Of a stretch of 64,000 nt of DNA, positions 4,597-63,274 are shown one piece after another. The DNA comes from Candidatus Gottesmanbacteria bacterium (lineage in GTDB: Bacteria > Patescibacteriota > Microgenomatia > UBA10105 > UBA927). A program made the position numbers and the translations under genes. Location of the stretch: contig JACRMP010000005.1 in the NCBI GenBank assembly GCA_016214885.1, forward strand, positions 6,725 to 70,724, read 5' to 3'. The notes under the pieces are model-generated. The model had not been told where the DNA came from, made no database searches, and saw nothing but the letters and a program-made list of their open reading frames with translations. Position 1 is the first letter of the stretch; each line of letters begins with the position of its first letter.

Positions 4597-6051
4597 ATGA
4601 ACAAAAAGTTCTATATCACCTGCGCTATTCCTTATGTCAATGCAGCTCCCCACATCGGACATGCACTGGAGTTTGTGCAGGGTGATGTTGTAGCCCGCTT
4701 CCACCGGCTATTGGGGGAAGAAACAATTCTGCTTTCAGGAGGCGATGAGAATGCTTTAAAAAACGTGCAGGCGGCAGAAAAGGCAGGCGTACCCGTCCAG
4801 CAATTCATTGACGAAAATAATGTTAAATTTCTGGAATTAACCAGGTCATTGGGCTGCCAATTCGACGTATGGCAAAAGGGCAGCGACACGGCACGCCACT
4901 TTCCCGCCAGCCAAAAATTGTGGAACCTCTGCGACAAAGCGGGAGATATCTACAAAAAATCCTACGAAGGCCTGTATTGTGTCGGTTGTGAGACATTCTA
5001 TGAGCCGGAAGAATTAAATGAACAGGGTGAATGCTTCGAGCACCCAGGCAAAAAACTGGAATCAGTGAAAGAAGAAAATTATTTTTTCCGCCTTTCTAAA
5101 TACCAATCAAAAATTATTGATCTCATCACATCGGGAAATCTCGCGATCACGCCGGAAACAAGAAAAAACGAAGTGTTGTCGTTTCTCAAGCAGCCGCTTC
5201 AGGACATAAGTATTTCCCGGAGCAACGAACGCGCCAAAAACTGGGGCGTCCCCGTGCCGAACGATGCAACCCAACGGATGTATGTGTGGTTTGATGCGCT
5301 CAACATTTACCAGTCGGGTATCGGCTTCGGGTGGGATGATGAAAAATACAAAAAATGGTGGCCTGCTGATGTCCATGTCATCGGCAAAGGGATAAGCCGC
5401 TTCCATGCGGTGTATTGGCCGGCATTTTTGCTTTCTGCAGGGCTCCCCACCCCCAGGGCGCTGTTTGTCCATGGATATTTTACGGTAAACGGTCAGAAGA
5501 TGAGTAAAACTTTAGGCAACGTCATAGACCCCAATGAGCTTATCGCTAAATACGGCAATGATCCACTCCGGTATTATTTCCTCCGCGAAATTCCGGCTAC
5601 CAGTGACGGGGATTTCTCGGAACGCAGGTTCAGAGAACTGTATAACGCCGAATTGGCAAACGGTCTGGGCAACTTTACCGCGAGAGTGGCAAAGCTTTGT
5701 GAACAATCAAAAATTACCGTTGCTTCTTATACATCCGATTTTCCTTCAGTCATACAGAAATATGAATTACTTCACAAACAATTAGCGCAATCACGATTTG
5801 ACGAATACATCAAGTCAATTCAGCTCTTCATCGCAGGATGGGATCAGTCTCTGGAAGAGAATAAACCCTGGCAATACAAAGATAATATTGAAGAAAATCT
5901 GCCGGGCTATTTATCGACACTCATTACAGCTGTCCGCGACACTGCCGAACTACTCCGTCCGATAATCCCCGAAACAGCTGAAAAAATTCTGGCGCAATAT
6001 TCCGGAGCATCAATCACGTCAGAAAAACCCATGTTTCCGCGCCTCCCGTAA
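4597..6051 (+). CDS. metG: methionyl-tRNA synthetase (short form, no C-terminal dimerisation domain)
   Basis: HIGH motif (PHIGHA), KMSKT motif and the class I anticodon-binding region. Confidence 0.95.
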   Translation: MNKKFYITCAIPYVNAAPHIGHALEFVQGDVVARFHRLLGEETILLSGGDENALKNVQAAEKAGVPVQQFIDENNVKFLELTRSLGCQFDVWQKGSDTARHFPASQKLWNLCDKAGDIYKKSYEGLYCVGCETFYEPEELNEQGECFEHPGKKLESVKEENYFFRLSKYQSKIIDLITSGNLAITPETRKNEVLSFLKQPLQDISISRSNERAKNWGVPVPNDATQRMYVWFDALNIYQSGIGFGWDDEKYKKWWPADVHVIGKGISRFHAVYWPAFLLSAGLPTPRALFVHGYFTVNGQKMSKTLGNVIDPNELIAKYGNDPLRYYFLREIPATSDGDFSERRFRELYNAELANGLGNFTARVAKLCEQSKITVASYTSDFPSVIQKYELLHKQLAQSRFDEYIKSIQLFIAGWDQSLEENKPWQYKDNIEENLPGYLSTLITAVRDTAELLRPIIPETAEKILAQYSGASITSEKPMFPRLP

Positions 6052-6053
6052 CT

Positions 6054-6833
6054 ATGTATATCGACACCCATGTACAGCTCAATTTTTCGGACTTTGATGA
6101 AGACAGGGTGACGGTTATCGCAAACGCCAAAAAAGCAGGAGTCAAACAATTCATAGTACCCGGCGTTGATCACAATTCCTGCCGCACGGCGCTCCATCTT
6201 GCTAAAGCACACCCGGGGGTTATATATGCTGCTGCGGGTTACCACCCCTACGAAGCTCCGAAAAATCCCGATCTTTCTTATATAGAGACACTGCTTAACG
6301 ATCCGGAAAACAAAGAATATATCGTGGCCGTCGGCGAATGCGGTTTGGATTACCACGAATACCGGGGCGAAGTGGCAGCCGGAAGAAAAGATGTTCAGGA
6401 ACGGTTATTCACTGATCAATTAACCATAGCAACAAAATTCGATTTGCCGGTGATCATTCATTGCCGCGAAGCATTTGATGACGTATTCACCATTCTCCAG
6501 AAACTTCCGGCAATACCACGGGGCGTTTTTCATTGTTTTTCCGGCAGCCAACAGGATCTGAGGATTGCTGTCGACATGGGATTTTTTATCGGTATTGACG
6601 GCAACGTAACGTATTCCAAACAACTTCCCATGGTAGTGCCGTTCATTCCCATTGATTCACTTGTCCTCGAAACAGATGCGCCATATTTAACTCCCGTCCC
6701 TCACCGGGGCAAACGCAACGAACCCAAATATATTCCGCTGGTTGCCGCAAAAGTCGCCGAGCTCCAGAAAAAACCCATAGACGAAATTATGACCGCAACA
6801 ACCGCAAACGCACAGCGGCTCTTTTCTGTGTAA
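6054..6833 (+). CDS. tatD: TatD-family metal-dependent deoxyribonuclease/hydrolase
   Basis: IDTHVQL N-terminus, GECGLDYH motif and HCR/FSG signature motifs of TatD. Confidence 0.9.
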   Translation: MYIDTHVQLNFSDFDEDRVTVIANAKKAGVKQFIVPGVDHNSCRTALHLAKAHPGVIYAAAGYHPYEAPKNPDLSYIETLLNDPENKEYIVAVGECGLDYHEYRGEVAAGRKDVQERLFTDQLTIATKFDLPVIIHCREAFDDVFTILQKLPAIPRGVFHCFSGSQQDLRIAVDMGFFIGIDGNVTYSKQLPMVVPFIPIDSLVLETDAPYLTPVPHRGKRNEPKYIPLVAAKVAELQKKPIDEIMTATTANAQRLFSV

Positions 6834-6904
6834 TTATCGTGGGGCGGTTAACAAGACCTGTTAGGCTCACCGGACCTCATCATGGTATAATTTAGCTTGA
6901 TCCT

Positions 6905-8386
6905 ATGCGCCGATTATTCGAACTCTACCCGAACAAAACCCAAAGGCTTTTGGAAATATCCATTCCGCTCACGTCCTGGTTTATCATCACCATGCCGTTA
7001 TGGCTTTCATTCTGGCATCCGGCACTGGTTGCTTACCTCATCATCACGTTCGACGTGTATTGGTTTTACAAATCCATAACGCTGGTAAATTTTGCGTTCC
7101 GGTCATTTATTACGTATACCGCACATGCCGCGGTAAACTGGCTGGCACAAGCGGAATCATTCCCGCATTTTAAGGATGTCTGGCACGTTATTATCATTCC
7201 CGAATTCCAGGAACCGGTGCACATTCTCAAGCGGACACTGGAAAATCTTGCACATCAGGACTTCCCCCGTGAGCGGATGATCATAGTACTGGCTACAGAA
7301 ACCAAAGATCCTAACGGCATTGCAACGGGTACCCTTCTTAAACAGGAATTCAGCAGTACGTTCGGACATTTCCTTATCACCCAACATACATTGGTTCCGG
7401 GCGAAATCGCCGGTAAATCATCCAACATGGCGTGGGCAGCAAAACAGGCGGATGCCTATATCAAACGCCACCGTATTCCGGTCGAATGGACAACCATAAC
7501 CTCCTGCGATGCTGATGCCCTCCCTCACCCTAAATACTTTTCCGCTCTTGCGTTCCAGTTTCTCACCGACACCAACCGCTTTGACCATCTGTATCAGGGA
7601 AGCATTATGTTTTACAGCAACATCTGGAGAATTCCGCTCCCCAACAGGTTCCTTAATACCTTAAACAGCATGTGGAATTTGGCGTTCCTTTCACAGGAAT
7701 CTAAGCTTATTAATTTTTCAACATACTCGCTCGCGTTTAAGACAGCCCGCGAAGTTGGGTTTTGGGCTGTCGATGTGATTCCAGAAGATTACCACATGTT
7801 CTTTTCCGTATTTTTTAAACGGGGTGAACACGTGGCTGTAAAGCCCATATTCCTCCCGGTTCTGGTCGACGCCGCAGAAAGTCACGGATTTTTCAGCACT
7901 TTCATCAACCAATATGAGCAATCGAAACGTTGGGCGTGGGGGGTAAGCGATATTCCCTATGTCATACGGCAATCATTTCTGCATCCGGAAATAAAACTTT
8001 CTGAGCGGTTCCGGCGGGTTTCCTCCTTACTAGAGCATCACATTCTGTGGCCTACTAACTGGTTTATCATAACCATAGGAAGCACGGTGCCGCCGCTTAT
8101 TAATCCCGTATTCGGCAGAACGGTTCTTGGTCACAATCTGGCTCAGATATCATCGGGGATCCTGACCTTGTCTACCATCTTTCTCATTATCGTATTCATT
8201 ATCGACTGGCGCATTAAGCCCCCGCCTCCCAAGGCATACCCCAAATGGAAACTTCCGCTGCTGTATCTTCAGTGGCTTACCCTGCCTATCATCTCGTTTT
8301 TTCTCTCGGCATTACCCGGGCTTGATGCCCACACCAGGCTCATGCTTGGTAAACGACTGGAATATCGTGTGACCGAGAAGATATAA
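6905..8386 (+). CDS. family 2 glycosyltransferase, processive type (cellulose/chitin-synthase-like), polytopic membrane protein
   Basis: DxD-like TSCDAD motif, QYEQSKRWAWG (QxxRW) motif and multiple TM helices at both ends. Confidence 0.7.
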   Translation: MRRLFELYPNKTQRLLEISIPLTSWFIITMPLWLSFWHPALVAYLIITFDVYWFYKSITLVNFAFRSFITYTAHAAVNWLAQAESFPHFKDVWHVIIIPEFQEPVHILKRTLENLAHQDFPRERMIIVLATETKDPNGIATGTLLKQEFSSTFGHFLITQHTLVPGEIAGKSSNMAWAAKQADAYIKRHRIPVEWTTITSCDADALPHPKYFSALAFQFLTDTNRFDHLYQGSIMFYSNIWRIPLPNRFLNTLNSMWNLAFLSQESKLINFSTYSLAFKTAREVGFWAVDVIPEDYHMFFSVFFKRGEHVAVKPIFLPVLVDAAESHGFFSTFINQYEQSKRWAWGVSDIPYVIRQSFLHPEIKLSERFRRVSSLLEHHILWPTNWFIITIGSTVPPLINPVFGRTVLGHNLAQISSGILTLSTIFLIIVFIIDWRIKPPPPKAYPKWKLPLLYLQWLTLPIISFFLSALPGLDAHTRLMLGKRLEYRVTEKI

Positions 8387-8396
8387 TGGAATTTGT

Positions 8397-9734
8397 ATGC
8401 TGAATTATCTGCTGGCACATACACCGCTCTTCTACTTTGTTCAGAGTTTGTGGAGGGATGAAGCGTTTTCCATCCTCGCTGCAAAAGAATCCCTCACTTT
8501 CATCGTCACCAAACTTGGATTTGAACCCCCTGTTTATTACACCCTCTTGCATTTCTGGATAAAAGTATTCGGCACAAGCGAACTTGCCGCCCGTAGCCTG
8601 TCGTTTATCGGATTGTTACTCGCCACCATAATCGTCATCGAATGGGCTGACCAAGTGTACAAAAAACACTGGCTTGCATGGTATGTACCTTTATTTTTCT
8701 TCCTCAATCCTATGCTTCTTTATTATGCGTTTGAGGTACGCACTTATGGATGGTTTATCTTCTTTGCTACCGCCACACTTTATACCTATGCCACCAATAG
8801 GTGGAGGTGGTTTTTTGTATCTGCACTGCTCGGTTTTTACACCCATGTGTATATGTTGCCGTATATAGCAGCGCTCGCCATCCATAGACTGTGGGCTCAC
8901 CGCACTCATGTTTTCAGAAATCCGAATAAAATCAGGTCATTTTTTGTTTTTCTGTTTACCGATCCTGGCATGAAATCAATCATGCTTTCCGTTATCTTTA
9001 TGATCCCGTGGCTCATAAAAATCGCCATGGAACTCCCCCGCATGAAATCCTCATGGTATTACCCGGTCGATATACAACTGGTTAAATCAGCACTTGGTAA
9101 TTTGTTTGTTGGCTACGAAGGAACCCCCTGGTATGGATGGAAATACACCAGATATCTTTCGATATTTATCGCAGCAGGATCCATATTTGCCCTCATGTAC
9201 AAAAAACTCCGTGAACATGCACAGCTCCTGGTTATTTTCGGGATGATCCCCCTCGCTGTTATCATCGGTATTTCGTTTATTAAACCGCTATATGTAAATA
9301 GATACCTCATCCCGACGACAATTGCCGAAATACTTCTGTTGGGCGCCGCCATTTCGGCTATTAAAAAACCGCTATTCCAAAAACTTACTGCTGCCGCCAT
9401 GCTGATAGGCGTGCTTTGGTTCAATTGGTGGTTCCCCCCGCAGCATCCAAAAACGCCGGTTAAGGAAACGTTTAACCAGATCCAAACGCTCATTAAACCG
9501 GGAGATATATACCTGGCTTCCGATGCACTTATATATCTTGAGACTTTGTACTATGCCAAAGAAGCATCCCGCGTATATCTGTATAACCCCAACAACCATG
9601 AATTTGCATGGTATATAGGGGATGCACTGTTTAACCCATCGCGCATGGTGCGGGACTATCCTATTTATCCCACGAGGGCATTCCTCATCCGGACCGACGG
9701 AACGTTTGAAGTAATCTACCGCATGCCGTTATGA
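8397..9734 (+). CDS. ArnT/PMT-like (GT39/GT83) polyprenyl-phosphate-sugar-dependent glycosyltransferase, membrane
   Basis: About 10 TM helices and a WRDEAFSILAAKE DE-motif in the first loop, as in ArnT/PMT enzymes. Confidence 0.55.
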   Translation: MLNYLLAHTPLFYFVQSLWRDEAFSILAAKESLTFIVTKLGFEPPVYYTLLHFWIKVFGTSELAARSLSFIGLLLATIIVIEWADQVYKKHWLAWYVPLFFFLNPMLLYYAFEVRTYGWFIFFATATLYTYATNRWRWFFVSALLGFYTHVYMLPYIAALAIHRLWAHRTHVFRNPNKIRSFFVFLFTDPGMKSIMLSVIFMIPWLIKIAMELPRMKSSWYYPVDIQLVKSALGNLFVGYEGTPWYGWKYTRYLSIFIAAGSIFALMYKKLREHAQLLVIFGMIPLAVIIGISFIKPLYVNRYLIPTTIAEILLLGAAISAIKKPLFQKLTAAAMLIGVLWFNWWFPPQHPKTPVKETFNQIQTLIKPGDIYLASDALIYLETLYYAKEASRVYLYNPNNHEFAWYIGDALFNPSRMVRDYPIYPTRAFLIRTDGTFEVIYRMPL

Positions 9735-10120
9735 AATTTACCCTTCCCATACAAAAAGCCGACAATCTTCTTGCCGGGCTTCGATACGAGGGAGCCACAT
9801 GGGAAAGTAGACTGGCTAAAATCGCGGTGGTCACCCAGGCAGTTAGCGGCGGAATAGTGCTTGCGTGGAACTGGCGCCTCCTTCCTCCGGAAATCCCGCT
9901 TTGGTACTCGAAGCCCTGGGGAGAAGAACGGCTTGTTTCTCCTTTTTTTCTTGCAATACCTATTCTTACCGCGTTTGCCGTATACGCGGTAAACCACTCA
10001 ATGGTGACAAGGACAGCGCGTGATCACCCGATGTTCGCCCGCGTGTTGTCGCTTTCTTCGCTGCTTATTTCGATTCTTAGCGCTATTATCGTTATCAGGA
10101 TTGTTACGCTGATAAGCTAA
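9731..10120 (+). CDS. small hypothetical membrane protein (129 aa)
   Basis: Start overlaps the upstream stop. Hydrophobic C-terminal helices. Confidence 0.4.
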   Translation: MKFTLPIQKADNLLAGLRYEGATWESRLAKIAVVTQAVSGGIVLAWNWRLLPPEIPLWYSKPWGEERLVSPFFLAIPILTAFAVYAVNHSMVTRTARDHPMFARVLSLSSLLISILSAIIVIRIVTLIS

Positions 10121-11206
10121 ATGACTCCGTTTCTTCCACCATTACTTATAGCAGTACTTTTAACCGCGCTGGTAACACCCGTTGTGGCATACTTGGCCAG
10201 GCGCTGGGGTCTGGTCGATGACCCTAAGCATCGATACCATCCGGCTCACACCCACAAAGGCATTGTCCCGCGTGCAGGAGGCCTTGCAATACTTATCGGC
10301 ATCTCGGTTACCATTCTTCTTTCTATCCCGCTAACGCCACAGCTTCTCGGAATACTCATCGGTAGTGTGATGCTCACCATCATCGGACTCCTCGATGACA
10401 AAAAGGACGTAAGCCCGTATATACGCCTTGTAGTAAACGCTGCAGTAGCGATCCTTGTGGTGGCAACAGGAAGCACCATTCCGTTTATCACCAACCCTTT
10501 GACCGGAGGCATTCTCCCGCTCAATGCGCTAAGTATCCAGCTTTCTTTCGGGGATATGGTTATTTCCATAGGGCTTCCTCATATTCTTGCCATTATCTGG
10601 ATCGTCTGGACAATGAATATCATCGGTTGGTCTGCGGGAGTTGACGGACAGATGCCCGGCTATGTAGCGATCTCTGCATTTGTACTGGGATTACTATCCC
10701 TGCGATATAGCCTTCTTGATCCATCCCAGATATGGGTGACATTACTGGCATTCATCGTGGCGGGCGCATATCTGGGATTCCTACCATGGAACTTCTATCC
10801 GCAGCGCATCATGCCTGGCTACGGCGGCAAAACGCTTGCGGGATTTTATCTGGCACTGCTGGGCATTCTGTCTTTTGCCAAACTGGGTACAGCGCTTCTT
10901 GTCCTGGGAATTCCCATGCTGGATGCCGTGGCAACGCTGATACGGAGAATCGGCAACAAAAAATCGCCCGTGCTGGCCGACCGGGGACACCTCCACCACA
11001 AACTCCTGGATCTTGGCTGGACAAAACCCCGGATCGCCTTGTTTTACTGGGGTGTCTCGGCTATACTGGGGCTGGTCTCACTCACAGTCACGAGTACGCT
11101 AAAAGTATTTACCTTTATCGCTGTGGCTGTTGCGTTGACCATGTTTTTTGTATGGGTCAGCTACTTTACGCAATTCTCAAAGCAGCGCGACCACGACAGT
11201 GGCTGA
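10121..11206 (+). CDS. GT4 polyprenyl-phosphate N-acetylhexosamine-1-phosphate transferase (MraY/WecA family)
   Basis: LLDDKKD and GVDGQ motifs, and the ADRGHLHHKLLDLGW signature typical of WecA/TagO-type enzymes. About 10 TM helices. Confidence 0.8.
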   Translation: MTPFLPPLLIAVLLTALVTPVVAYLARRWGLVDDPKHRYHPAHTHKGIVPRAGGLAILIGISVTILLSIPLTPQLLGILIGSVMLTIIGLLDDKKDVSPYIRLVVNAAVAILVVATGSTIPFITNPLTGGILPLNALSIQLSFGDMVISIGLPHILAIIWIVWTMNIIGWSAGVDGQMPGYVAISAFVLGLLSLRYSLLDPSQIWVTLLAFIVAGAYLGFLPWNFYPQRIMPGYGGKTLAGFYLALLGILSFAKLGTALLVLGIPMLDAVATLIRRIGNKKSPVLADRGHLHHKLLDLGWTKPRIALFYWGVSAILGLVSLTVTSTLKVFTFIAVAVALTMFFVWVSYFTQFSKQRDHDSG

Positions 11207-12090
11207 AGAACGTAGCGCTGTTCACTACGATATTGTTTACGGGACAGCTATTTAATGGACCGCAATTTACGGCGGCATTTCTTGGGTTTATCGCATTTTG
11301 TTTCCTCGCGTCGTCCAACTATATCCTGAACGATGTTCTGGATGCCCCCGCAGACAGACGCCATCCGTTCAAAAAATTCAGACCGGTCGCCAGCGGCAAG
11401 TTACCCATCAAAACAGCACTTCTTGTTTCACTGCTTCTGCTTACCGCAGGGCTAAGTATTGCCAGCGCGGTGGGACAGACATTCTTTATATTTTCATTAG
11501 TCTTTATCCTGCTCCAGTATTCATACTCCATAGTGCTTAAACACATATCAGTAATAGACATTATTGCTATTACGATAGGCTACGTACTCCGGGTGTATGC
11601 GGGAGAAGCAGCCAGCGGGTATCATATCTCCATCTGGCTGGCTCTTGCCGCGCTGTCGCTTGCGTTATTTTTGGCTATCGGTAAACGGCGGGCGGAGCTC
11701 ACGCTGATACAAAGTTCAGGCGATGCGTCGCCGAAAGATACCAGAGCTGCGCTCTCCCACTATTCCGAAAAACTGCTGGATGCATATACTTCTATGTTCG
11801 CGACCAGCACGTTCATTTCCTATACCTATTTCACTTTTCTGGAACGACCGATTACCCAAGGGCTCATCTTCCGTAATTACAGTGACTTCGTCATCGGTAT
11901 TCCTGATAGGAAATGGATGATGTTAACGATACCCTTTGTGCTGTATGGCATTATGCGGTATATGCAACTTATTTATCATGGAAAAGGTGAATCACCGGAA
12001 CAGATACTAACAACTGATTTACCGCTCCTCTCTACCGTGGTAATCTGGGCGGGAGCTGCCTTCTTCATCATCTACGGCATCGGGGGCTAA
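11152..12090 (+). CDS. UbiA-family prenyl-phosphate phosphoribosyltransferase (decaprenyl-phosphate 5-phosphoribosyltransferase-like)
   Basis: LKAARPRQWLKNVALF N-terminus and NDVLDAPADRRHP (NDxxDxxxD) motif. The start was moved to an internal ATG at 11152. The ORF-track 5' extension (10732-11151) overlaps the GT4 gene in another frame and is rejected. Confidence 0.7.
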   Translation: MGQLLYAILKAARPRQWLKNVALFTTILFTGQLFNGPQFTAAFLGFIAFCFLASSNYILNDVLDAPADRRHPFKKFRPVASGKLPIKTALLVSLLLLTAGLSIASAVGQTFFIFSLVFILLQYSYSIVLKHISVIDIIAITIGYVLRVYAGEAASGYHISIWLALAALSLALFLAIGKRRAELTLIQSSGDASPKDTRAALSHYSEKLLDAYTSMFATSTFISYTYFTFLERPITQGLIFRNYSDFVIGIPDRKWMMLTIPFVLYGIMRYMQLIYHGKGESPEQILTTDLPLLSTVVIWAGAAFFIIYGIGG

Positions 12091-12101
12091 CAGGATTCTC
12101 T

Positions 12102-12629
12102 TCAGGAATTCCGGTCAGTGTGTTCACTGATAACCCGCACCAGCTGTGAATTATTCCAAATACTGTAGTTATACATAATCCCCGGTATATTACCCAGCAC
12201 ATGGGGGAAATAATACTTTACGGGCGGAAACACTGTTTCCATACTAAGCAGGTCTTCCTTACGCATCCAGGAAGCATCCCCCTCGTGATTCGACAATACA
12301 TGCTCCGGCCTCTTATCTAAAGTAGCCAGAAATCCGAACACAATAAAAAGCTCATTTCTATCAGTGTGGTGATGAATGGCAACAAATTTAAGCTGAATAC
12401 TTTCCGGCGTCAGGATAACACCTACTTCCTCCTTTGTCTCACGGATTGCTGCAGCTAGCGGATTTTCCCCTTCTTCTATATGTCCGCCGGGGAGTGCAAG
12501 CCAGCCGGGAAATACTTTTTTGGTTATACTCCGCTTAAACATGAGCGCTTCGTCCCCTGCAACAATACATACATCAACAGTAAATATGGGGGTAGCCACG
12601 TCCTGAAGATGCTTACTTTGCTCATTCAT
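12102..12629 (-). CDS. NUDIX hydrolase
   Basis: Nudix box GGHIEEGENPLAAAIRETKEEVG. Confidence 0.8.
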   Translation of the reverse strand: MNEQSKHLQDVATPIFTVDVCIVAGDEALMFKRSITKKVFPGWLALPGGHIEEGENPLAAAIRETKEEVGVILTPESIQLKFVAIHHHTDRNELFIVFGFLATLDKRPEHVLSNHEGDASWMRKEDLLSMETVFPPVKYYFPHVLGNIPGIMYNYSIWNNSQLVRVISEHTDRNS

Positions 12630-25031: not shown

Positions 25032-25046
25032 CGTATTTATTGTAAG

Positions 25047-25118
25047 TGGGTCAGCTTGGGATCGGACCAAGGACATCTATCTTATAAGGATAGCGCTCTA
25101 CCACTGAGCTACTGACCC
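25047..25118 (-). tRNA. tRNA-Ile(UAU)-like tRNA gene (anticodon loop CUUAUAA), unusual T-loop TCCGATC, CCA not encoded
   Basis: Manual cloverleaf on the reverse strand. Acceptor GGGTCAG/CTGACCC, D-arm GCTC-AGTGGTA-GAGC, anticodon stem CTATC/GATAG and T-stem CTTGG/CCAAG all pair perfectly. Confidence 0.6.
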
Positions 25119-26940: not shown

Positions 26941-29370
26941 TTATAACCGGGCACGTTCCTGTATTTCCGCTTCGATTAATTCACGCGCCTGCCCGTATTT
27001 AAGCCGCGACAACTGGATAATGGCTGCAGCCACATCCCTGTTTCTCTCGGCATTAACAACCGTCATATCTTTAGACAAATCCACACTAAACGGTTTCACC
27101 GGCTCGTTGTGCACAATTGTTTTAACATATGCGTTGAATTTGTCTATATTGATTAAATCAATTTCATTAAATGTCGGCTGGAATTCGTGTTGGAGATAAT
27201 TGGCATCGGTGACACCGACACGGAATGTTATGAGAGTTCCGACGTTTCCGAATACGGCGTTCTTCACTTCTTCTTCCATTTGTCCGATAAATTGGTTGGC
27301 TACGGTAAGGCTTAACCGGTATTTACGAGCCTCGGACAAAATCTGCGCAAAATCTGGGGTGGCAAAATTCTGGAACTCATCGACATACAGGTAAAAGTCA
27401 CGCCGCTTTTCCTCGGGAACATCCTGTCTGCTCATCGCGGCGATAAGAATACGCGGAACCAAAATTAATCCCAGGAAATTGCTGTTTTCTTCGCCCAATT
27501 TTCCCTTAGAGAGATTTACCAGTAAGATTTTCCCCTCATCCATGACCTTACGGAAGTTAAAGCTTGATTCCGACTGCCCAATGATGTTGCGCATGAGTTT
27601 ATTGGTGACGAAACGTCCGAATTTGGAAACGATATAATCCAACACCTCAGACTTATGGAAGTCAGCGGTCTGTGCAATCTGATCCGTCCAGTATCTTCTG
27701 ATGATCGGATCCTGCACCTTGGGCAACAGCTCCTGTACAAAATTGGCGTCTGTTAATATACGCACCACTTCAATAAAGGTGGTGCCCGGCTCATACATTA
27801 CCGTCAACATGGCGTTTCTTACCGCGTGTTCAAACCGCGGACCGATAATACCGGTTTTCTGCGGATCATAAAGCTTGTACATAAGTCCGACGATACTCGT
27901 TACCACAAAATGCTTCTGCTCCTCAGTTTCTGCCTCTAACATGTTAAGACCCATCGGCCGCTCACCGTCGGACGGATCAAAATAAATAACGTCTTCCGCG
28001 CGTTCCGGCGGAATACGGGTTAAAATACCGTCGATTAAATCTCCGTGGGGATCAATAACGGCAAGTCCCTTGCCCGCTTTTACATCCTGGATGACCAACT
28101 CTTCAAGCATTTGTGATTTTCCGGTACCCGTTTTTCCGATAACATAAATATGCCGCCTTCTGTCGTCATCCCCAATAAATATCGGCCTGTCTACGCCGCG
28201 GTACCTCGAAACACCAACATATAAACCACTCGATGCTATCTGCATCGGTGCAGGTGCACGTTTGGCATTCAGCCAAAAAATATGAGGAGTCTCAATCGAT
28301 TTATTCGGTAAATGATAAATGGTTGCCAATTCATCGCTGTTTAAAACACCGTACTGCTTAAACATCGGCAAATTCACCATGGGGAAATACCGGTATATAA
28401 AGTCGATCATAAAAAACTTCTTCATCGGATGCTTCACCTTGGAAAAGTGGTTGTGATCCGACGTATATTGGTGAAATGACGTAAGCAGGTTCTCAAGGTG
28501 CGCATCAGCCGCTTCCTTGGTGGCGGCGGATACAACCAGCCGGATGACGGTATTAAATCCCGGCTTAGATACTTTTTGTTCTATGGATTCCAATGTTTTA
28601 GCGTCTACCTTAAAACTTGCCTTCTCAGGATTGGCTTCATTCTTTTTTGTTTTAGAAATATACGATCTCCCTAAACTGCTCCACTTGCTTCCTGCGGGCT
28701 GGATAAGCACCTGGATCACCGCTCCCTCACCCTCTGCCATTTTGGCCAACACGCTGGTAATGGATGATAATGGATCAATGGGTAAATCACGGAATACCCT
28801 GATAGGCAGATAGTCGGAATTTTTCGGAGTAAGAGCTGCAAACGCTACTTTGCCGTTTTCAGAAAATATGTTGTATTCATCAACAATTTTTACATCTGCA
28901 CCCGGATATGAACCGTGAATCTGCTTTTCTACAAGATCGATAAACCGTTTGGGAGCTGCTATATAAAACCGTATGTCTTCCCTTTTGGCGACGATCTCAA
29001 ACGATATATGATCTTGCGGCTTGAGGAATGACCAGAATCCTCCGTGATACATAGCGTGCAGGCTGGCGAACATTTGTTCAGCGGCGTCAATTTTTATTTC
29101 ATTGTCACGCGGCGTTGCCACCTGCATGAGTGTATATTCCATTGATCGCTTCTCGCGGTCACGGTATTTCCATGCCAAAAATAATACATAGCCCAACACG
29201 GCAAACCCGATGAGACAAAAGGTAAGGATAAGCAGTGCTACTCCCAGCACTTCAAGTTGATACACAATATCGGCAAATTCGAGCGGCATAATATTATTCA
29301 GTAGTTGACCGTGTTGTTTTTCCTTTTGCGGAGGTAAGCAATATGTGCGCCTGCTTGAGCTGGCGTTCAC
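26941..29370 (-). CDS. membrane-anchored VirD4/TraG/TraD-family coupling-protein-like P-loop ATPase
   Basis: N-terminal TM helices. Walker A VIGKTGTGKSQ followed by AVIDPHGDL (the DPKGD-like motif of TrwB/VirD4) and Walker B LYVDEFQNF. Confidence 0.55.
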   Translation of the reverse strand: MNASSSRRTYCLPPQKEKQHGQLLNNIMPLEFADIVYQLEVLGVALLILTFCLIGFAVLGYVLFLAWKYRDREKRSMEYTLMQVATPRDNEIKIDAAEQMFASLHAMYHGGFWSFLKPQDHISFEIVAKREDIRFYIAAPKRFIDLVEKQIHGSYPGADVKIVDEYNIFSENGKVAFAALTPKNSDYLPIRVFRDLPIDPLSSITSVLAKMAEGEGAVIQVLIQPAGSKWSSLGRSYISKTKKNEANPEKASFKVDAKTLESIEQKVSKPGFNTVIRLVVSAATKEAADAHLENLLTSFHQYTSDHNHFSKVKHPMKKFFMIDFIYRYFPMVNLPMFKQYGVLNSDELATIYHLPNKSIETPHIFWLNAKRAPAPMQIASSGLYVGVSRYRGVDRPIFIGDDDRRRHIYVIGKTGTGKSQMLEELVIQDVKAGKGLAVIDPHGDLIDGILTRIPPERAEDVIYFDPSDGERPMGLNMLEAETEEQKHFVVTSIVGLMYKLYDPQKTGIIGPRFEHAVRNAMLTVMYEPGTTFIEVVRILTDANFVQELLPKVQDPIIRRYWTDQIAQTADFHKSEVLDYIVSKFGRFVTNKLMRNIIGQSESSFNFRKVMDEGKILLVNLSKGKLGEENSNFLGLILVPRILIAAMSRQDVPEEKRRDFYLYVDEFQNFATPDFAQILSEARKYRLSLTVANQFIGQMEEEVKNAVFGNVGTLITFRVGVTDANYLQHEFQPTFNEIDLINIDKFNAYVKTIVHNEPVKPFSVDLSKDMTVVNAERNRDVAAAIIQLSRLKYGQARELIEAEIQERARL

Positions 29371-29806
29371 ACCACTCAGCCAGCCAACGCCACGAACTCA
29401 TGAGACTCTGATGAAGCCCCTGTGCTATCTGGTCATCGGTAAGAGGAAGGGTAATCGCTGCTACCTGCGAGGCGGGAGGAGCCGCCGGCCCCACTGCACT
29501 AACCCCCATTTTTTGGACAATATGCGGCAACTCTATACTATCTGACTTCATGGAAACACCCGCCATTCTGACTTCGGGGGATAATTCAGTATCTTTTCCC
29601 ACTTCTGCCATCAGAGGAGCCTCGACTGCACCGACTATCGGCGCCACTTCCTTTGCCATGCTTCCCACCACACCGGCCGGCTGCGGGTTTACCGGCGGGG
29701 ATGTATTTGACTTAGCATTGGGCAGATCATCCATATTTATTATTCTATCATGAACCATACACGAATATGACGCCTGACGAAGGCCATGAAACATTACCGG
29801 CGGCAC
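29294..29806 (-). CDS. hypothetical protein (170 aa), in an operon between the 696-aa protein and the VirD4-like ATPase
   Basis: ORF overlaps both neighbours on the same strand. No recognisable motif. Confidence 0.3.
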   Translation of the reverse strand: MPPVMFHGLRQASYSCMVHDRIINMDDLPNAKSNTSPPVNPQPAGVVGSMAKEVAPIVGAVEAPLMAEVGKDTELSPEVRMAGVSMKSDSIELPHIVQKMGVSAVGPAAPPASQVAAITLPLTDDQIAQGLHQSLMSSWRWLAEWCERQLKQAHILLTSAKGKTTRSTTE

Positions 29807-31838
29807 CGGGTTTATCTTTCTTTTTTTTCTTGTTCTTTTTAAGCGGTGTGGAACGTGGTTTCCCGTGCTCCCTGAGGGCAGTTAAATACCAAATGATAGA
29901 TAATAAAAGCCAGGAGGGCTCCCTCCCGGCATCTACCCCGAACTCCTGAGTGGTATCCGTGTTGCGCGAGGCCTTTACCGCCTCGGCAGGATACGCCTGA
30001 TTGTACTTTCCGAAATCCACGAGCCACCACACGATGACGGCAATACTTAACGAACGGGCGGTCATATATATTTTCTTCTCATCTTCCGTTATTGTTCCGG
30101 AGACACTCTCTTTGAGAATAACAGGTGGCGGCGGTGCTTCATTTCCGGAAATCTTTTTTCTCTTAATCCGCGGGGGCGTTACATCACGCGAAAAGTGCCG
30201 CAGCATACGAAGGAGTTTTTCCATAACCATTGCGGGAAACACTTTGGTAACTTTTTCCCCGCTGCTTTGTTGCTGCAGCAGCTCACGCGTCGCCTGCCGC
30301 ACTTGACCTGCTTCAACCGGAACAGTCCGCAACACACGCTTTCCCGCCTTCTTTTCATTAAGCCCGCGGAGTAATCCCATAATCGTACGGACCGATAATG
30401 GTTTCTTTTTTTCCTTTCCCGGGGGTTTTTGCGGCAGTATTTCATCCGGAGTTTTTTTGCGAAACAGAGCCGCTTCGGGGATAACAAGCCGGGGTGTTTC
30501 CCGTGGAGCCGTCAGCCAAAGAATGATTGCCGCAGGAACCACTGCCGCACTTTCCTTATAGCGGAGAAGGGATTTGGTTATCCACCATTCTGCAGCTATT
30601 ACTTTCATGGACTCGGATGAGGCAGTTGTTGGGGCAACAGCAATACCTACCCGCTCCGACCGAACCGCTGCCGCAACAGCAAGCGGACTCACCTCTGTCG
30701 GGCTTTTGGTCGATACATTAAGCCTGCTATCTTTCGCTGCGGGCTGTTTATCGCTCTTTTCTTTAGGTGATGCAAATTGGTTAATCTTCCGGTCTATCTG
30801 TTCGCGCAAAAAAGTCCCCAGCTCAACCATGGAATGGGACATATCCCTGGCAATAGTGCTACCCATATCCGGGAGTGTTTTGCGGGAGGAAATATTCTCA
30901 CCGGAAACTGATTCGTAATATTCCATAGCCTGCGCTATGGCTATTGTCCGTATGTCCTCATCATGAACTTCCTTTTCGTAAATAAAAAAATGGGCATACG
31001 CTGCGGCATCCGGCCCAGTGCTGCCCAGCTGCTCGTTATGAAATGATGCGAGATGCTCAATAAATTTTTCCCCTTCTTCGTGGGTAAAATCCCTGCCGGT
31101 AGTTTTATACAAATCAACCTGTTTGGAAACAACACTCCCATCATCCGTTTTTTGCCAAACCTGCACATACCGCACCGCGTCAGGATGGGAAAGTACGCTG
31201 ACAAATCCTCTAGCACTCCCGTCGATAAACTCGTTCTGCATGGTTATCTGGGCTTTGTGTTCTTCCGGATTGTAGGCTGCCGGATTCCCGGTAAATTCCG
31301 CGTACTGGCGGGTGTGCTCCCATAATTCTGAAAGGGTAACCATTTTATCGCCGTATGCAGTAGCTAACTCCCAATTACCCTCCGCTGTCTGTACGGGTTG
31401 CCAATGAACAACAGATTCTTCATGGGCAATTTCCTTGTGTTCATACGACAGATCCTGCGCCAAACGTTTCTCAAAACGCTCTACTGCCGCTTGCTTTACC
31501 TGATCGACAGTCCACTGCGGATGCTCACGGGCGACCTCCGGTTCAATAAAATTTATCAGAGAGTAGGAAGCGGCATCTGAACTAAATGAATGGTCGCCGC
31601 GCCACACGGGGGGCTCATTTTCTTCAGTGGTATCACGGAGTACTGCAATACCCCGAAGCGTCATCCGGTCCGCATACCGCTCGCGGGCATCACGGTCTTC
31701 GGTTGTACGCGTATTAATTCCGGAAGATATAAAATATTCGGGAGAGGGTTTCTCCATACATAAACCTCCTGCTCGGGATACAGATAAGGGGGAGTTCCGG
31801 ACTATTCCGATAATCATCGGATTACACCGTTGCGGCAC
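29748..31838 (-). CDS. large hypothetical protein with C-terminal TM helix and poly-Lys tail (start probably internal, MEKPSPEYF near 31757)
   Basis: 696-aa ORF co-directional with and upstream of the VirD4-like gene. No conserved catalytic motif recognised. Confidence 0.4.
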   Translation of the reverse strand: MPQRCNPMIIGIVRNSPLSVSRAGGLCMEKPSPEYFISSGINTRTTEDRDARERYADRMTLRGIAVLRDTTEENEPPVWRGDHSFSSDAASYSLINFIEPEVAREHPQWTVDQVKQAAVERFEKRLAQDLSYEHKEIAHEESVVHWQPVQTAEGNWELATAYGDKMVTLSELWEHTRQYAEFTGNPAAYNPEEHKAQITMQNEFIDGSARGFVSVLSHPDAVRYVQVWQKTDDGSVVSKQVDLYKTTGRDFTHEEGEKFIEHLASFHNEQLGSTGPDAAAYAHFFIYEKEVHDEDIRTIAIAQAMEYYESVSGENISSRKTLPDMGSTIARDMSHSMVELGTFLREQIDRKINQFASPKEKSDKQPAAKDSRLNVSTKSPTEVSPLAVAAAVRSERVGIAVAPTTASSESMKVIAAEWWITKSLLRYKESAAVVPAAIILWLTAPRETPRLVIPEAALFRKKTPDEILPQKPPGKEKKKPLSVRTIMGLLRGLNEKKAGKRVLRTVPVEAGQVRQATRELLQQQSSGEKVTKVFPAMVMEKLLRMLRHFSRDVTPPRIKRKKISGNEAPPPPVILKESVSGTITEDEKKIYMTARSLSIAVIVWWLVDFGKYNQAYPAEAVKASRNTDTTQEFGVDAGREPSWLLLSIIWYLTALREHGKPRSTPLKKNKKKKKDKPGAAGNVSWPSSGVIFVYGS

Positions 31839-43476: not shown

Positions 43477-45606
43477 ATGGCCATTCCTAGTGGACTTCGG
43501 TTAACTGGTGCAAAAAAGTTTTTTGTAAAACACCGCAAATTTATTTTTTGGATTTTTCCGGTGGCACTCATCGGCGTATTTTATTGGGTTATCCTCCGCG
43601 ATCTTCCCTCGCCTGCCAAGCTTGGCCGGTATGATGTACCGCTGGCCACCAAAATCTATGACCGTAAAGGCGAACTGTTATTTGATATCTTTGCTGACCA
43701 AAACCGCTCTCCTGTTCCGCTATCCGACATACCCAAAATTGTACGGGATGCAACCATTGCCATAGAAGATAAAACGTTTTATCAGCATTCAGGCATCAAC
43801 CCAATAGGAGGAGTCGTTCGCGCGCTCTATGCATCAGTACTTAACAAAAAACTTCAGGGGGGCTCAACGATCACCCAACAACTCGTTAAATCAGCGCTCC
43901 TCACTCCGGAACGCACCGTAACCCGGAAGCTTAAGGAATTTTTACTTGCCCCCACTGTCGAACTTTTATACTCCAAAGATAAAATACTCGAAATGTATCT
44001 TAATACCGTGCCGTACGGGGGTACTGCATGGGGCATCGAAACCGCCGCAGAAAAATATTTCGGTGTATCAATAAAAGATGTAACGCTTGCACAAGCTGCC
44101 ATTCTGGCAGGACTCCCCCAGGCACCCACCCTCTATTCCCCGTTCGGGGCTCATCCGGAACTGGCAAAAGAACGGCAAAAGGAAGTGCTCCGTAGAATGA
44201 CGGAGGATGGGTATATCACCAAAGTCCTGGTAGAACGGGGTGGTCTTAAAGTCACAACAACGCTTGATCTGGAACTCCAGAACTATACCCAGGCGACCGT
44301 TGCCGCTGAAGTGGCGAAGCTCAAAAATCTTCGGGTTGGCAACGGGGCAGCCATCGTAACAAAGCCTTCTACCGGTGAAATTCTTGCCATGGTGGGATCT
44401 ATCGATTATTTCGCTACGCCCTCAGGATCATTTAACGTAACAACGGCGTTACGCCAACCCGGATCATCCATTAAGCCCATAAACTATGCAATCGGCATAG
44501 AGAATAAAATAGTAACACCCGCAACTACATTCCTGGATGTTCCCACTTGTTTTATAGGCAGTCCCGGACAACCCATTTACTGTCCGCGTAATTATGACGG
44601 CACCTTCAGGGGACCGGTACAACTCCGGTTTGCCCTCGGTAACTCACTCAATATTCCGGCAGTAAAAATGCTTTATCTAAATACGGTGCAGGGCATGGTG
44701 GCATCCGCAAGTGCATTTGGTCTCGACACGCTTACCGACCCAAGTAAATATGGGCTTTCCCTCACTTTGGGAGGCGGCGAAGTCCGCATGACGGATATGG
44801 CCGAGGCATTCTCGGTGTTTGCTAATGCGGGTATCCGTCATGATCTGGTTTCCATTCTTAAAGTCGTCGATAAAAACGGAAAAGTACTGGAAGAAAATAA
44901 AGATCCGAATATTGCCAAAGACATACCCTCACAACTACTACTCACCGGACAACGCACCGTGTCTCCCGAGACGGCATTTCTTATTTCACACATGCTTTTG
45001 GACAACAACGCCAGACAACAGGCATTCGGACCAAATTCAGCACTTGTCATCCCCAACCGTGCAGTGTCGGTGAAAACCGGTACTACCAACGATTTACGGG
45101 ATAACTGGACAATTGGATACACCCCTCAATTCCTCGTTGCCGCTTGGGTCGGCAACAACGATAACTCCCCGATGAACCCGTATCTTACCTCAGGTGTTAC
45201 GGGGGCTGCCCCCATATGGAATAAAATCATGCGGCGCGTACTGGAAGGTAAGCCTGATATTTGGCCGAAACAGCCGGATGGCATCACGGGAGGCCGCGTT
45301 TGCACCACCAACGGATTACTGCCTCCTAACACCAGCGGAACCCCCAACCAGCAGGATTCTGCAGGAAGTCAACCGGACGAAGCGCTCGGATGTCCCACGC
45401 GGTACGAATATTTTATCAAGGGGACTGTGGCAAGAAGCACAAGTTCCCGGCAGATAGTTCCCATTGATAAAACAACCGGAGACCTCGCCGCTCCGGGGAT
45501 AACTGAAAACATAGAAATGCAGGAACACGATATCGCATGGGACGGAGTCACCCGCTGGTGCCTGGACTGCACCCATCCCGAAGGCAAAGCCGTCATCGTG
45601 AAGTAG
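43477..45606 (+). CDS. class A penicillin-binding protein (PBP1A-type glycosyltransferase + transpeptidase)
   Basis: GT51 motifs EDKTFYQHSGI and GGSTITQQLVK. Transpeptidase motifs SSIKP (SxxK), SLN and KTGTTND. Confidence 0.9.
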   Translation: MAIPSGLRLTGAKKFFVKHRKFIFWIFPVALIGVFYWVILRDLPSPAKLGRYDVPLATKIYDRKGELLFDIFADQNRSPVPLSDIPKIVRDATIAIEDKTFYQHSGINPIGGVVRALYASVLNKKLQGGSTITQQLVKSALLTPERTVTRKLKEFLLAPTVELLYSKDKILEMYLNTVPYGGTAWGIETAAEKYFGVSIKDVTLAQAAILAGLPQAPTLYSPFGAHPELAKERQKEVLRRMTEDGYITKVLVERGGLKVTTTLDLELQNYTQATVAAEVAKLKNLRVGNGAAIVTKPSTGEILAMVGSIDYFATPSGSFNVTTALRQPGSSIKPINYAIGIENKIVTPATTFLDVPTCFIGSPGQPIYCPRNYDGTFRGPVQLRFALGNSLNIPAVKMLYLNTVQGMVASASAFGLDTLTDPSKYGLSLTLGGGEVRMTDMAEAFSVFANAGIRHDLVSILKVVDKNGKVLEENKDPNIAKDIPSQLLLTGQRTVSPETAFLISHMLLDNNARQQAFGPNSALVIPNRAVSVKTGTTNDLRDNWTIGYTPQFLVAAWVGNNDNSPMNPYLTSGVTGAAPIWNKIMRRVLEGKPDIWPKQPDGITGGRVCTTNGLLPPNTSGTPNQQDSAGSQPDEALGCPTRYEYFIKGTVARSTSSRQIVPIDKTTGDLAAPGITENIEMQEHDIAWDGVTRWCLDCTHPEGKAVIVK

Positions 45607-45695
45607 ACAACCATACAACGTCACTGCATTGATTATGGCGCGGCAGAATCACCCCTTGTCGGAACACCCGGCGACATGATATAAAAAATGGCGCT

Positions 45696-57803: not shown

Positions 57804-57827
57804 ATTTTGCAGTCAATAACTATCATA

Positions 57828-57989
57828 TCACGGTTTAGGTTGTGATAGTGGTCTATAGATATTTTTTATTAGATTCAGAAGGCGCATTGCTCTAGGCTGT
57901 GCCTCTTTTTCTGTCAGCTCTATATCAAACTCGTCTTTATAGAGTTGAATGAATTCCTGAATCGCCGTTTTAGATAAGTTAGTCTTCAT
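57828..57989 (-). CDS. small hypothetical protein (53 aa) overlapping the RHH gene (ATGATGA overlap), possible RDF/partner of the RHH protein
   Basis: Manually translated as MKTNLSKTAIQEFIQLYKDEFDIELTEKEAQPRAMRLLNLIKNIYRPLSQPKP. Below the ORF-track size cutoff. Confidence 0.3.
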   Translation of the reverse strand: MKTNLSKTAIQEFIQLYKDEFDIELTEKEAQPRAMRLLNLIKNIYRPLSQPKP

Positions 57990-58146
57990 CATGTTCCTCA
58001 ACCGCCAGAGCTTCAGCTATGTACCCCTCTAGAAACTCTCTAATGCTCGTACCAGCCTGTACAGCTTTCAACTTGAGCAACTTATGCAGGTCTGCTCTCA
58101 CAAGCACCTGTTTCCATGCTTTTTTATCGATTTGTCGATTTTTCAT
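57979..58146 (-). CDS. ribbon-helix-helix (CopG/Arc/MetJ-like) DNA-binding protein (55 aa)
   Basis: Manually translated as MKNRQIDKKAWKQVLVRADLHKLLKLKAVQAGTSIREFLEGYIAEALAVEEHDED. RHH pattern (beta-strand KQVLVR, then two helices). Confidence 0.45.
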   Translation of the reverse strand: MKNRQIDKKAWKQVLVRADLHKLLKLKAVQAGTSIREFLEGYIAEALAVEEHDED

Positions 58147-58662
58147 ACTTTTCTCCCCCTCCTCTCTAAGAACACCCTCCGTTCCCTCGCTTCTTCCGGT
58201 CTATCTTTCCTACTGAAAAATTTTTCAAATTTTCAGTGAGGTAAGCTTATTTGTTAGATGAGCCATCAGTCGCTTCGGTTTACGGACAGCCTTGTGTAAA
58301 CGCTTATTACTCGGCAACCCTTTCGGGATAACGTGAGTAGGCTGCAACTCTCCATTTCCTGCTTGTTAGCAGGTGTATGGGATTTCCCCATGCATCAGCC
58401 AACAAAAAAGCCTTATTAGCTCATTGGTAGGGAGAGGGGTTCCTACCAAAAAACCAATAAGGCTTACCCCTCTCTTTTTGCCAACAAAAAAACGGCTAGC
58501 TATCTGAGACTGAGCCACAAAAGCTCAAGTCGTCTAGACGCATTGCCGTCTCTGTTTAGGAGGTTTGGTTGCCTTGTCTAAATTCTGATATTTACTCTAT
58601 ACCTCGTAACCAACCGTCGTCAATAAGGGAAATTACTCAAGAGTATAGAGCATAATAGCGAC

Positions 58663-59474: not shown

Positions 59475-59705
59475 AGGTAGAGACTATTGTATCAGTAACA
59501 AACCTATGAGTTTTTTTATTGGTCAGGAAAGCTAGGGTGCGTGCTTAAAAATCTGAAATCTCAGCAAACCCAGCATCTTATTGTCCCTTTTTTATCGTGT
59601 AAGAAAACCTTAGTAAACCTTAGGATTTTTGTGCCTAAGCATCTAAAAAATCTTGTCAAATCTTGACATGCACTATTGCCTTTTTTATCGTGTCAAAAAA
59701 GTCAC

Positions 59706-62756: not shown

Positions 62757-62765
62757 AAAAATTAT

Positions 62766-63254: not shown

Positions 63255-63274
63255 AGCGAATTGCATCGCCTAGA

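Follow-up and report, generated by a model that had tools for sequence, protein, structure and literature searches.

Five consecutive genes in the genome of a Candidatus Gottesmanbacteria bacterium raise the question of whether this member of the Microgenomates, within the candidate phyla radiation (CPR, or Patescibacteria), assembles a polyprenyl-phosphate-linked sugar and transfers it outside the membrane, and if so, which sugar. The genes lie at positions 6905-12090 of a 64,000-nt stretch of DNA (assembly GCA_016214885.1, contig JACRMP010000005.1, positions 6,725 to 70,724 of the forward strand), which was analysed as a whole and is hereafter called the window. A first-pass annotation, made from the letters alone, had read them as a processive family 2 glycosyltransferase (GT2), an ArnT/PMT-like glycosyltransferase, a WecA/MraY-like GT4 and a UbiA-family relative of decaprenyl-phosphate phosphoribosyltransferase, and had looked to arabinan synthesis in Corynebacterineae for an analogy. 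The case that the UbiA-family protein belongs to the polyprenyl-phosphate 5-phosphoribosyltransferases (DPPRS/PPPRS) is strong on sequence grounds, and on balance we lean towards an envelope-glycan operon that would make lipid-phospho-ribofuranose for use by a glycosyltransferase of the GT-C fold. The substrates, the order of steps, and the pairing of the UbiA and GT-C enzymes we infer from gene structure, protein families and folds, active-site conservation and synteny, all of which were observed.

The five genes and their products

The ORF (open reading frame) list and the motifs bear out the first-pass description of five co-directional, closely packed genes for membrane proteins, and the motifs it had quoted are found in place (QSKRW at 7919-7933, RPRQWLKN at 11188-11211, NDVLDAPAD at 11329-11355). 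The features of the cluster, with the evidence for each, are as follows.

6905-8386, + strand: synthase-like GT2, 493 aa (PF13632, motifs, fold)
8397-9734, + strand: GT-C fold glycosyltransferase, 445 aa (AlphaFold model, Foldseek, transitive homology)
9731-10120, + strand: DUF1648-like small protein with three transmembrane (TM) helices, 129 aa (alignments, PF07853 matches in orthologues)
10121-11206, + strand: GT4 of the PNPT family (polyprenyl-phosphate N-acetylhexosamine (HexNAc)-1-phosphate transferase; CAZy-independent 'Glycos_transf_4'), 361 aa (PF00953)
11152-12090, + strand: UbiA-superfamily DPPRS/PPPRS-like protein, 312 aa (NF008978, Rv3806c similarity)
11152-11206, + strand: dual-coding overlap of the GT4 3' end and the UbiA 5' end, 55 nt (sequence)

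According to the ORF list, neighbouring genes are 0-10 nt apart or overlap; the 445-aa and 129-aa genes share a 4-nt ATGA, and the GT4 gene begins on the base right after the stop of the 129-aa gene. All four enzyme assignments are upheld, as a QxxRW synthase-like GT2, an ArnT/PMT-like GT-C, a WecA/MraY-family GT4 and a UbiA protein akin to decaprenyl-phosphate phosphoribosyltransferase.

The UbiA protein, at 312 aa and with no extra domain, passes NCBIfam NF008978 'decaprenyl-phosphate phosphoribosyltransferase' (211.5 bits, cutoff 207) and scores 72.5 bits against Pfam PF01040, with the sister models falling under their own cutoffs (NF008977, 210.7 bits, cutoff 234; NF008976, 146.5 bits, cutoff 474). 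Outside the DPPRS/PRK08238 models, its best match is a generic prenyltransferase model at 51 bits, and quinone, heme and chlorophyll prenyltransferase models reach at most that score. Its closest relative in the PDB is Mycobacterium tuberculosis Rv3806c (8j8j; E 5e-31, 111 bits), against 38 bits (E 1e-8) for the next UbiA-fold structure. Rv3806c binds Mg, diphosphate, ribose, the 5-phosphate and decaprenyl phosphate through R22, K28, Y70, N73, D77, K87, R90, Q135, Y138, K143, Y157 and K208 (PMC10994848), and alignment to 8j8j finds 12 of these 12 residues kept in the window protein, in the same order, as R13, K19, Y57, N60, D64, K74, R77, Q122, Y125, K130, Y144 and K195. Among 20 UbiA orthologues K195 alone varies and the other 11 residues are invariant, including the phosphoribose-specific contacts K19, Y57, Q122 and Y144 (K28, Y70, Q135 and Y157 of Rv3806c); ordinary UbiA enzymes do not share the phosphoribose contacts of Rv3806c (PMC10994848). 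The Mg/diphosphate motif NDxxDxxxD aligns as N60, D61, D64 and D68, and the K/R cluster as R13, K74, R77, K130 and K195, in both cases with roles described previously (PMC10994848, PMC11127046); further motifs in the gene are FKKFRP (11368-11385) and GKRRAE (11680-11697). Since the NF008978 score, the match to Rv3806c and the full set of binding residues agree, the protein stands apart from the quinone prenyltransferases, and grouping with those was what the first-pass annotation had named as telling against its assignment; by each of these measures it is of the type that uses phosphoribosyl pyrophosphate (PRPP). Family membership has strong sequence support, and PPPRS activity is predicted with high confidence.

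As the PGAP pipeline already labels Gottesmanbacteria orthologues decaprenyl-phosphate phosphoribosyltransferase, and as homologues are spread across bacteria and haloarchaea, this holds no surprise at the level of the enzyme family. Homologues of DPPRS are widespread, occurring in rhizobia, cyanobacteria, haloarchaea, Bacteroidota and on Lactococcus plasmids, and the window protein is about 31-33% identical to those of Corynebacterineae and 33-37% identical to those of cyanobacteria, alphaproteobacteria and haloarchaea. Among the haloarchaeal sequences are DPPRS-family homologues on megaplasmids of Natronococcus, Haloterrigena and Halostagnicola (hits H4, H5, H11 and H12; 32-34% identity), two of which are annotated decaprenyl-phosphate phosphoribosyltransferase.

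For the 445-aa protein, sequence searches of Pfam, NCBIfam and the PDB gave no match, even with a 27-sequence profile; it lies under the gathering scores of PF13231 and PF02366, just outside PMT_2. Its AlphaFold (AF2) model is of good quality by its own scores (pLDDT 87.9, pTM 0.89), and in a Foldseek search it most resembles ArnT (5ezm; E 7.6e-6, TMq 0.59), ahead of STT3/PglB, ALG9/ALG12, Pmt4, Emb and AftD, all of them GT-C enzymes. An invariant W19-R-D21-E22 motif stands behind the first helix, and a small alpha/beta domain forms the C-terminus. Further, in locus L092, from a lineage further removed, the cluster contains a homologous GT-C (E 9e-15) that does pass PMT_2, and 4 of 120 homologues carry PF13231. 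Fold and transitive homology thus support an ArnT/PMT-like GT-C outside current sequence families, as modelled here. As ArnT uses a polyprenyl-phosphate-linked sugar donor, its place as the top fold match counts for a role of the GT-C protein in using the UbiA product, for which we put the likelihood close to, and somewhat short of, even. Locus L092 has two tandem GT-Cs (5161-7988), both PMT_2-positive, of which the first only is a homologue of the window protein. A second GT-C of the window (50954-52537) matches PMT_2 (28.2 bits, cutoff 26.1), and the first-pass annotation had taken this ArnT-like enzyme as a hint of an unusual glycopolymer. Neither by sequence nor by profile could it be related to the GT-C of the cluster or to the second of the two in L092, and it sits 39 kb from the cluster; we rejected it as a partner, and it adds no evidence on the glycopolymer.

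The GT2 passes PF13632 narrowly (30.2 bits, cutoff 27). Across 25 homologues there is no change in D135, D202xD204, E294-D295 or Q339xxR342W343, and the GT-A core lies between helices at 9-76 and 365-492. A sequence and profile search of the PDB gave no significant match to solved GT2s. In the fold search the top matches were PcManGT, BcsA and hyaluronan synthases (HAS), from a weak model (pLDDT 65.6) in which the QxxRW region and C-terminal helices fall below 50 and TM-scores to BcsA and HAS are 0.3-0.4. The protein is thus like BcsA, hyaluronan synthase and chitin synthase/NodC in having the D, DxD, ED and QxxRW motifs and helices on both sides of GT-A, and unlike them in being highly divergent (30 bits to PF13632), with a poorly modelled channel region.

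For GT4 the family match is firmer (PF00953, 80.2 bits), and the motifs LLDDKKD (10388-10408) and DRGHLHH (10979-10999) are present. It scores 106 bits on TIGR02380 (wecA) against 52 bits on TIGR00445 (mraY), both below the equivalog cutoffs (326 for wecA), and its best PDB matches are MraY structures (E 1e-10 to 1e-11); by these sequence models it is closer to WecA than to MraY. The 129-aa protein, whose gene is always directly 5' of the GT4 gene, has three TM helices and a conserved loop, LPPxVPLWYSxPWGxE (9881-9928). Its family counts 696 representatives in a library of 1.84 billion proteins; PF07853 (DUF1648) is matched weakly by 9 of 44 orthologues, and a Roizmanbacteria member is named DUF1648 in UniRef. 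We considered it as a flippase of the GtrA, SMR or MATE type and found no support, as neither the protein nor its orthologues match those families in Pfam, a tblastn search of the window and related loci with a cluster-linked GtrA was empty, and the likeness is to DUF1648.

Gene order across relatives and the GT4/UbiA overlap

Upstream of the cluster, the ORF list gives two further genes on the same strand.

4597-6051, + strand: MetRS gene
6054-6833, + strand: TatD gene

A scan of GTDB with one genome per species yielded 80 loci, and the order MetRS-TatD-GT2-GT-C-small protein-GT4-UbiA is kept in about 80 species loci wherever the contig is long enough; the homologues that carry names belong to Candidatus Gottesmanbacteria, Microgenomates or Patescibacteria. 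Identities to the window proteins across these species loci are as follows.

GT2: 57-92%
UbiA: 56-90%
GT4: 54-84%
GT-C: 34-69%
small protein: 26-75%

The five-gene arrangement is not chance, and the cluster is probably a vertically inherited envelope-glycan operon of Gottesmanbacteria-type Microgenomates. A wider scan of metagenomes, anchored on a 12-sequence alignment of the small protein, recovered 80 diverse loci at 27-58% identity. The UbiA gene lies directly 3' of GT4 in 43 of the 49 such loci with at least 1 kb after GT4, and overlaps it in about half of those 43; GT2 and GT-C are both present in 27 of the 30 loci with enough upstream sequence, 12 of the 30 having two tandem GT-Cs. In loci that lack UbiA at this place (L091, which is Roizmanbacteria MGAU01000013.1, and L107, L123, L145, L152 and L165), the next gene after GT4 is on the minus strand and codes for about 270 aa; in L091 it is a PEGA/SH3 gene.

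Accessory genes vary around this constant order. A soluble 231-aa GT2 (PF00535) lies between TatD and the synthase-like GT2 in about 25 of 70 GTDB loci (for example L026, 5055-5756), and a GT-B enzyme (PF00534) takes that position in three loci (including L016, 4491-5654, and L066, 4347-5543); the window has neither insert. Variable accessory transferases of this kind are typical of a glycan cluster. At locus L064 a 458-aa flavoprotein of the amine-oxidase type (PF01593; 3652-5028, minus strand) adjoins the cluster. We considered it as an enzyme like UDP-galactopyranose mutase and set it aside because it is confined to that single locus. Downstream, the convergent NUDIX gene of the window (12102-12629) was rejected as a member of the system, as relatives (L007, L008) do not conserve it.

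The first-pass annotation had placed the UbiA start 55 nt inside the 3' end of the GT4 gene in another frame, which is exact: the start supported by homology is the ATG at 11152, giving 312 aa in the -1 frame relative to GT4, and gene calls on six public contigs with an identical UbiA protein use the same start. The 55-nt overlap recurs in about 74 species, covering most of loci L007-L082, and is absent from the most distant group (L083-L088). Its further suggestion of translational coupling stands as a possibility, with a qualification. In most lineages a GGAGGA Shine-Dalgarno sequence lies 8-10 nt 5' of the UbiA ATG, within the GT4 coding sequence, where it encodes Gly-Gly, and as these lineages thus have an initiation signal of their own for UbiA, independent initiation is at least as likely as coupling. 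In the sub-lineage of the window the Shine-Dalgarno sequence has decayed (GACCATGTTTTTTGT-ATG; window 11112-11157), with the 55-nt overlap still kept. A programmed -1 frameshift fusing GT4 to UbiA was considered on account of a G-TTT-TTT before the ATG and 144 open codons upstream. We rejected it, because the T-run is not kept (TTTCTC in relatives), because stops in the UbiA frame occur anywhere from 8 to 243 codons upstream without pattern, and because most lineages have GGAGGA before the ATG.

Comparators, partner enzymes and competing explanations

If the UbiA product is used as in known pathways, then a phosphatase, a flippase and, for arabinose, an epimerase would act on it. Pfam searches of the other ORFs of the window returned no DprE1-type flavoenzyme (PF01565-type), DprE2-type short-chain dehydrogenase/reductase (SDR), PAP2 or HAD phosphatase, GtrA, SMR or MATE protein, the remaining ORFs being ordinary CPR housekeeping genes. 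Cluster-linked proteins from two annotated plasmids then served as tblastn queries on two sets of sequence, the window together with 88 Gottesmanbacteria loci (1.57 Mb) and 82 other loci (0.68 Mb). The Chondrinema plasmid has the order GT39s-DPPRS-FAD oxidoreductase-SDR-GT39, of the arabinose type, and the Lactococcus plasmid the order hypothetical protein-DPPRS-HAD phosphatase-GtrA, with no epimerase. The DPPRS queries matched 89 of 89 Gottesmanbacteria loci. The DprE1-like, HAD, GtrA and GT-C queries had zero matches in either set, and DprE2-like queries gave three scattered generic SDR matches in the 1.57 Mb and none in the 0.68 Mb, none of them linked to the cluster. Likewise, hhalign detected no relation between the 445-aa GT-C and the DPPRS-linked GT-Cs of Lactococcus and Chondrinema, and there is no Emb/Aft-type (Arabinose_trans or related) Pfam match, Emb and AftD ranking below ArnT, oligosaccharyltransferases and ALG proteins by fold. 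In the absence of an epimerase from the cluster, we predict ribofuranose (Ribf) as the sugar, and not arabinofuranose (Araf).

Kelly et al. (PNAS 2024; PMC11127046) described three-component systems composed of a UbiA-family PPPRS, a flippase and a GT-C, in which the PPPRS, with a phosphoribose phosphatase (PRP), makes lipid-phospho-ribofuranose from PRPP, and the GT-C (founding family GT136) adds pentofuranose outside the membrane. The systems they surveyed held no epimerase where the sugar is Ribf, DprE1/E2 homologues where it is Araf, and the ORF13 epimerase where it is xylofuranose; in Citrobacter youngae O1/O2 the parts are ORF15 (PPPRS-PRP), ORF14 (a MATE flippase) and ORF12 (GT-C/GT136) (PMC11127046). 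The window resembles such systems in having a PPPRS near a GT-C in one co-directional array (11152-12090 and 8397-9734), with the same NDxxDxxxD and RxxE catalytic motifs, inside a glycan-assembly cluster. It differs in that no HAD phosphoribose phosphatase is fused to the UbiA protein or encoded beside it, a DUF1648-like 3-TM protein sits where a MATE, SMR or GtrA flippase would, the UbiA gene overlaps a WecA-like gene, and the GT-C is 445 aa, has no carbohydrate-binding module, and has no discernible sequence likeness to the DPPRS-linked GT-Cs of the two plasmids. Further, unlike the variable modules that modify O-antigens, this cluster is a vertically inherited CPR core operon.

The mycobacterial route to decaprenylphosphoryl-arabinose (DPA) and arabinogalactan (Rv3806c, Rv3807c, DprE1/DprE2, Rv3789, WecA, GlfT2, Emb/Aft) shares with the window a WecA-type primer enzyme, a GT2 polymerase, a DPPRS with all the Rv3806c binding residues, and a GT-C. 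Unlike that route, the window and related loci gave no DprE1/DprE2, PAP2 or GtrA-like Rv3789 in our searches, the GT2 is a synthase integral to the membrane where GlfT2 is peripheral, and the GT-C is not of the Emb/Aft type. With respect to the ArnT (GT83)/PMT_2 clan, the GT-C has 5ezm as its best structure match, the acidic WRDE behind the first helix and, in L092, a relative that passes PMT_2, and it is unlike ArnT in lying under Pfam and PDB sequence thresholds and in its length (445 aa against about 540). The analogy with DPA and arabinan drawn in the first-pass annotation fares poorly: DprE1/DprE2-like proteins are missing from the ORFs of the window and from the flanks of about 160 related loci, the arabinan reading is unsupported by these sequences, and the general PPPRS, flippase and GT-C system for pentofuranose is a better comparator than Corynebacterineae.

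By analogy with these systems, the WecA-like GT4 would load HexNAc-1-phosphate on polyprenyl phosphate at the cytoplasmic face, priming a lipid-linked glycan which the synthase-like GT2 might then lengthen or polymerise. The UbiA enzyme would move 5-phosphoribose from PRPP to polyprenyl phosphate, giving polyprenyl-phospho-ribofuranose-5-phosphate; the 5-phosphate would be removed by a phosphatase that has no assigned gene, and the lipid flipped across the membrane, for which the DUF1648-like small protein is the sole, and a weak, candidate within the cluster. Outside the membrane, the GT-C enzyme may take the lipid-phospho-pentofuranose to decorate the glycan or a surface protein.

Several observations weigh against this scheme. 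With no phosphatase (HAD PRP or PAP2) or flippase (GtrA, SMR or MATE) in or near the cluster, two of its steps are left without an assigned gene; the window is about 6% of a genome of roughly 1 Mb, and as the searches for epimerase and phosphatase covered the window and related loci, such enzymes might be encoded elsewhere. The synteny takes in the unrelated MetRS and TatD genes, so that conservation of order says little by itself about a functional link, and as the structural model of the GT2 is poor, its processivity is read from motifs only. Moreover, 6 of the 49 metagenome loci (about 12%) and a Roizmanbacteria contig keep GT2, GT-C, small protein and GT4 with no adjacent UbiA, and their GT-C is orthologous to that of the window (E 1e-48); such a GT-C may use another lipid-linked donor, and since about 12% of lineages have no UbiA in the cluster, the link from UbiA to GT-C can only be inferred.

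It follows from the UbiA-less loci that the core is a four-gene module, and that UbiA, though very often present beside it, is dispensable or movable. The GT-C might then act on the polyprenyl-diphosphate glycan primed by GT4, as a ligase, an oligosaccharyltransferase or a polymerase, with UbiA an accessory whose product serves another GT-C or another purpose. This reading, the strongest of the rivals, deserves attention, given the persistence of the module with an orthologous GT-C in those loci, the place of the PglB and STT3 oligosaccharyltransferases just behind ArnT in the fold search, the tie of the small protein to GT4 and not to UbiA, and the second in-cluster GT-C of 12 of 30 loci, which could be the pentofuranosyltransferase. 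We nevertheless consider it unlikely, as the lineage of the window has a single in-cluster GT-C, the unrelated GT-C at 50954 being 39 kb distant, as ArnT, the best structure match, uses a polyprenyl-monophosphate sugar, and as UbiA could sit elsewhere in genomes that lack it at this position.

A pathway of the DPA type, in which the UbiA product would first lose its 5-phosphate and then be a substrate for DprE1/DprE2-like epimerases whose genes lie elsewhere in the genome, and GT-Cs would build an arabinofuranose polymer (as in Corynebacterineae, in Pseudomonas TfpW pilin glycosylation and in clusters of the Bacteroidota type), is improbable in our estimation. Its first step would fall to the same enzyme family, and genes like DprE1/E2 do lie beside DPPRS outside Actinobacteria, for example on the Chondrinema plasmid. 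In M. tuberculosis, dprE1/E2 are some 15 genes from ubiA, so that linkage is not obligatory. Against these points stand the empty searches for the flavoenzyme and the SDR in the window ORFs, the zero DprE1 tblastn matches in related loci, and a fold likeness to Emb and AftD weaker than that to ArnT, with no Emb/Aft-type Pfam matches; the Araf systems surveyed by Kelly et al. also held DprE1/E2 homologues (PMC11127046). Still less probable is that the genes are unrelated neighbours kept together by conserved CPR gene order, with GT4 the MraY of peptidoglycan synthesis, GT2 making an exopolysaccharide independently and UbiA acting as an ordinary prenyltransferase. The inclusion of MetRS and TatD in the synteny would fit, as would the fact that by sequence the solved relatives of GT4 are MraY proteins only. 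It is hard to reconcile with a UbiA protein clearly of the PRPP type, and not a quinone or heme prenyltransferase, with a GT4 score on the WecA model twice that on MraY, with overlapping or abutting genes whose five products are all in the membrane, which argues for co-expression, or with the insertion of accessory glycosyltransferases (the 231-aa GT2, GT-B) in the same cluster elsewhere.

The wider window and the biology of the lineage

Elsewhere in the window, two class A penicillin-binding proteins in tandem (709 and 829 aa; transglycosylase plus transpeptidase; 43477-48185) indicate that the organism makes peptidoglycan. On the minus strand at 26941-31838, an 809-aa TrwB/TraG/HerA-like ATPase adjoins a 696-aa protein with no family match, and the pair may form a module resembling type IV secretion or DNA uptake. 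The tRNA-Ile at 25046-25118 has the anticodon TAT (UAU), uncommon among bacteria, and is not of the lysidine-dependent CAU type. Adjoining tRNA-Asn(GTT) at 56137-56209 is the gene of a large serine recombinase (XisF/Ccr-like, 557 aa; 56130-57803, minus strand), and from 56 kb onwards, as far as the window runs, GC content is lower, at about 0.40 against about 0.48 before; judged by its sequence, the region 56130-64000 looks like a mobile element or prophage inserted at a tRNA gene.

The envelopes of CPR/Patescibacteria are almost uncharted because the organisms are largely uncultured, and our literature search found no paper on DPPRS or pentofuranose systems in CPR or Gottesmanbacteria. The presence of the operon in about 80 species-level genomes, with GT2 and UbiA 56-92% identical, makes its product a candidate core envelope glycopolymer. 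A bolder proposal, which we offer tentatively and judge unlikely as it stands, is that Microgenomates-type CPR possess a lineage-wide, vertically inherited and probably essential pathway to a secondary envelope polymer, parallel in its logic to mycobacterial arabinogalactan, with a new GT-C family, a DUF1648-type protein in place of the usual flippase, and a non-canonical phosphatase. If so, then these uncultured organisms would have a ribofuranose-containing wall glycan so far undescribed. The cluster is most aptly viewed as a variant of the known theme of lipid-phospho-pentofuranose glycosylation, in a lineage with no prior description of it. If its UbiA enzyme makes polyprenyl-phospho-ribose, then its genes would form a compact set for heterologous expression and would suggest flippase and phosphatase components so far unrecognised, and the route from PRPP to lipid-linked pentofuranose would reach into a deep bacterial radiation.

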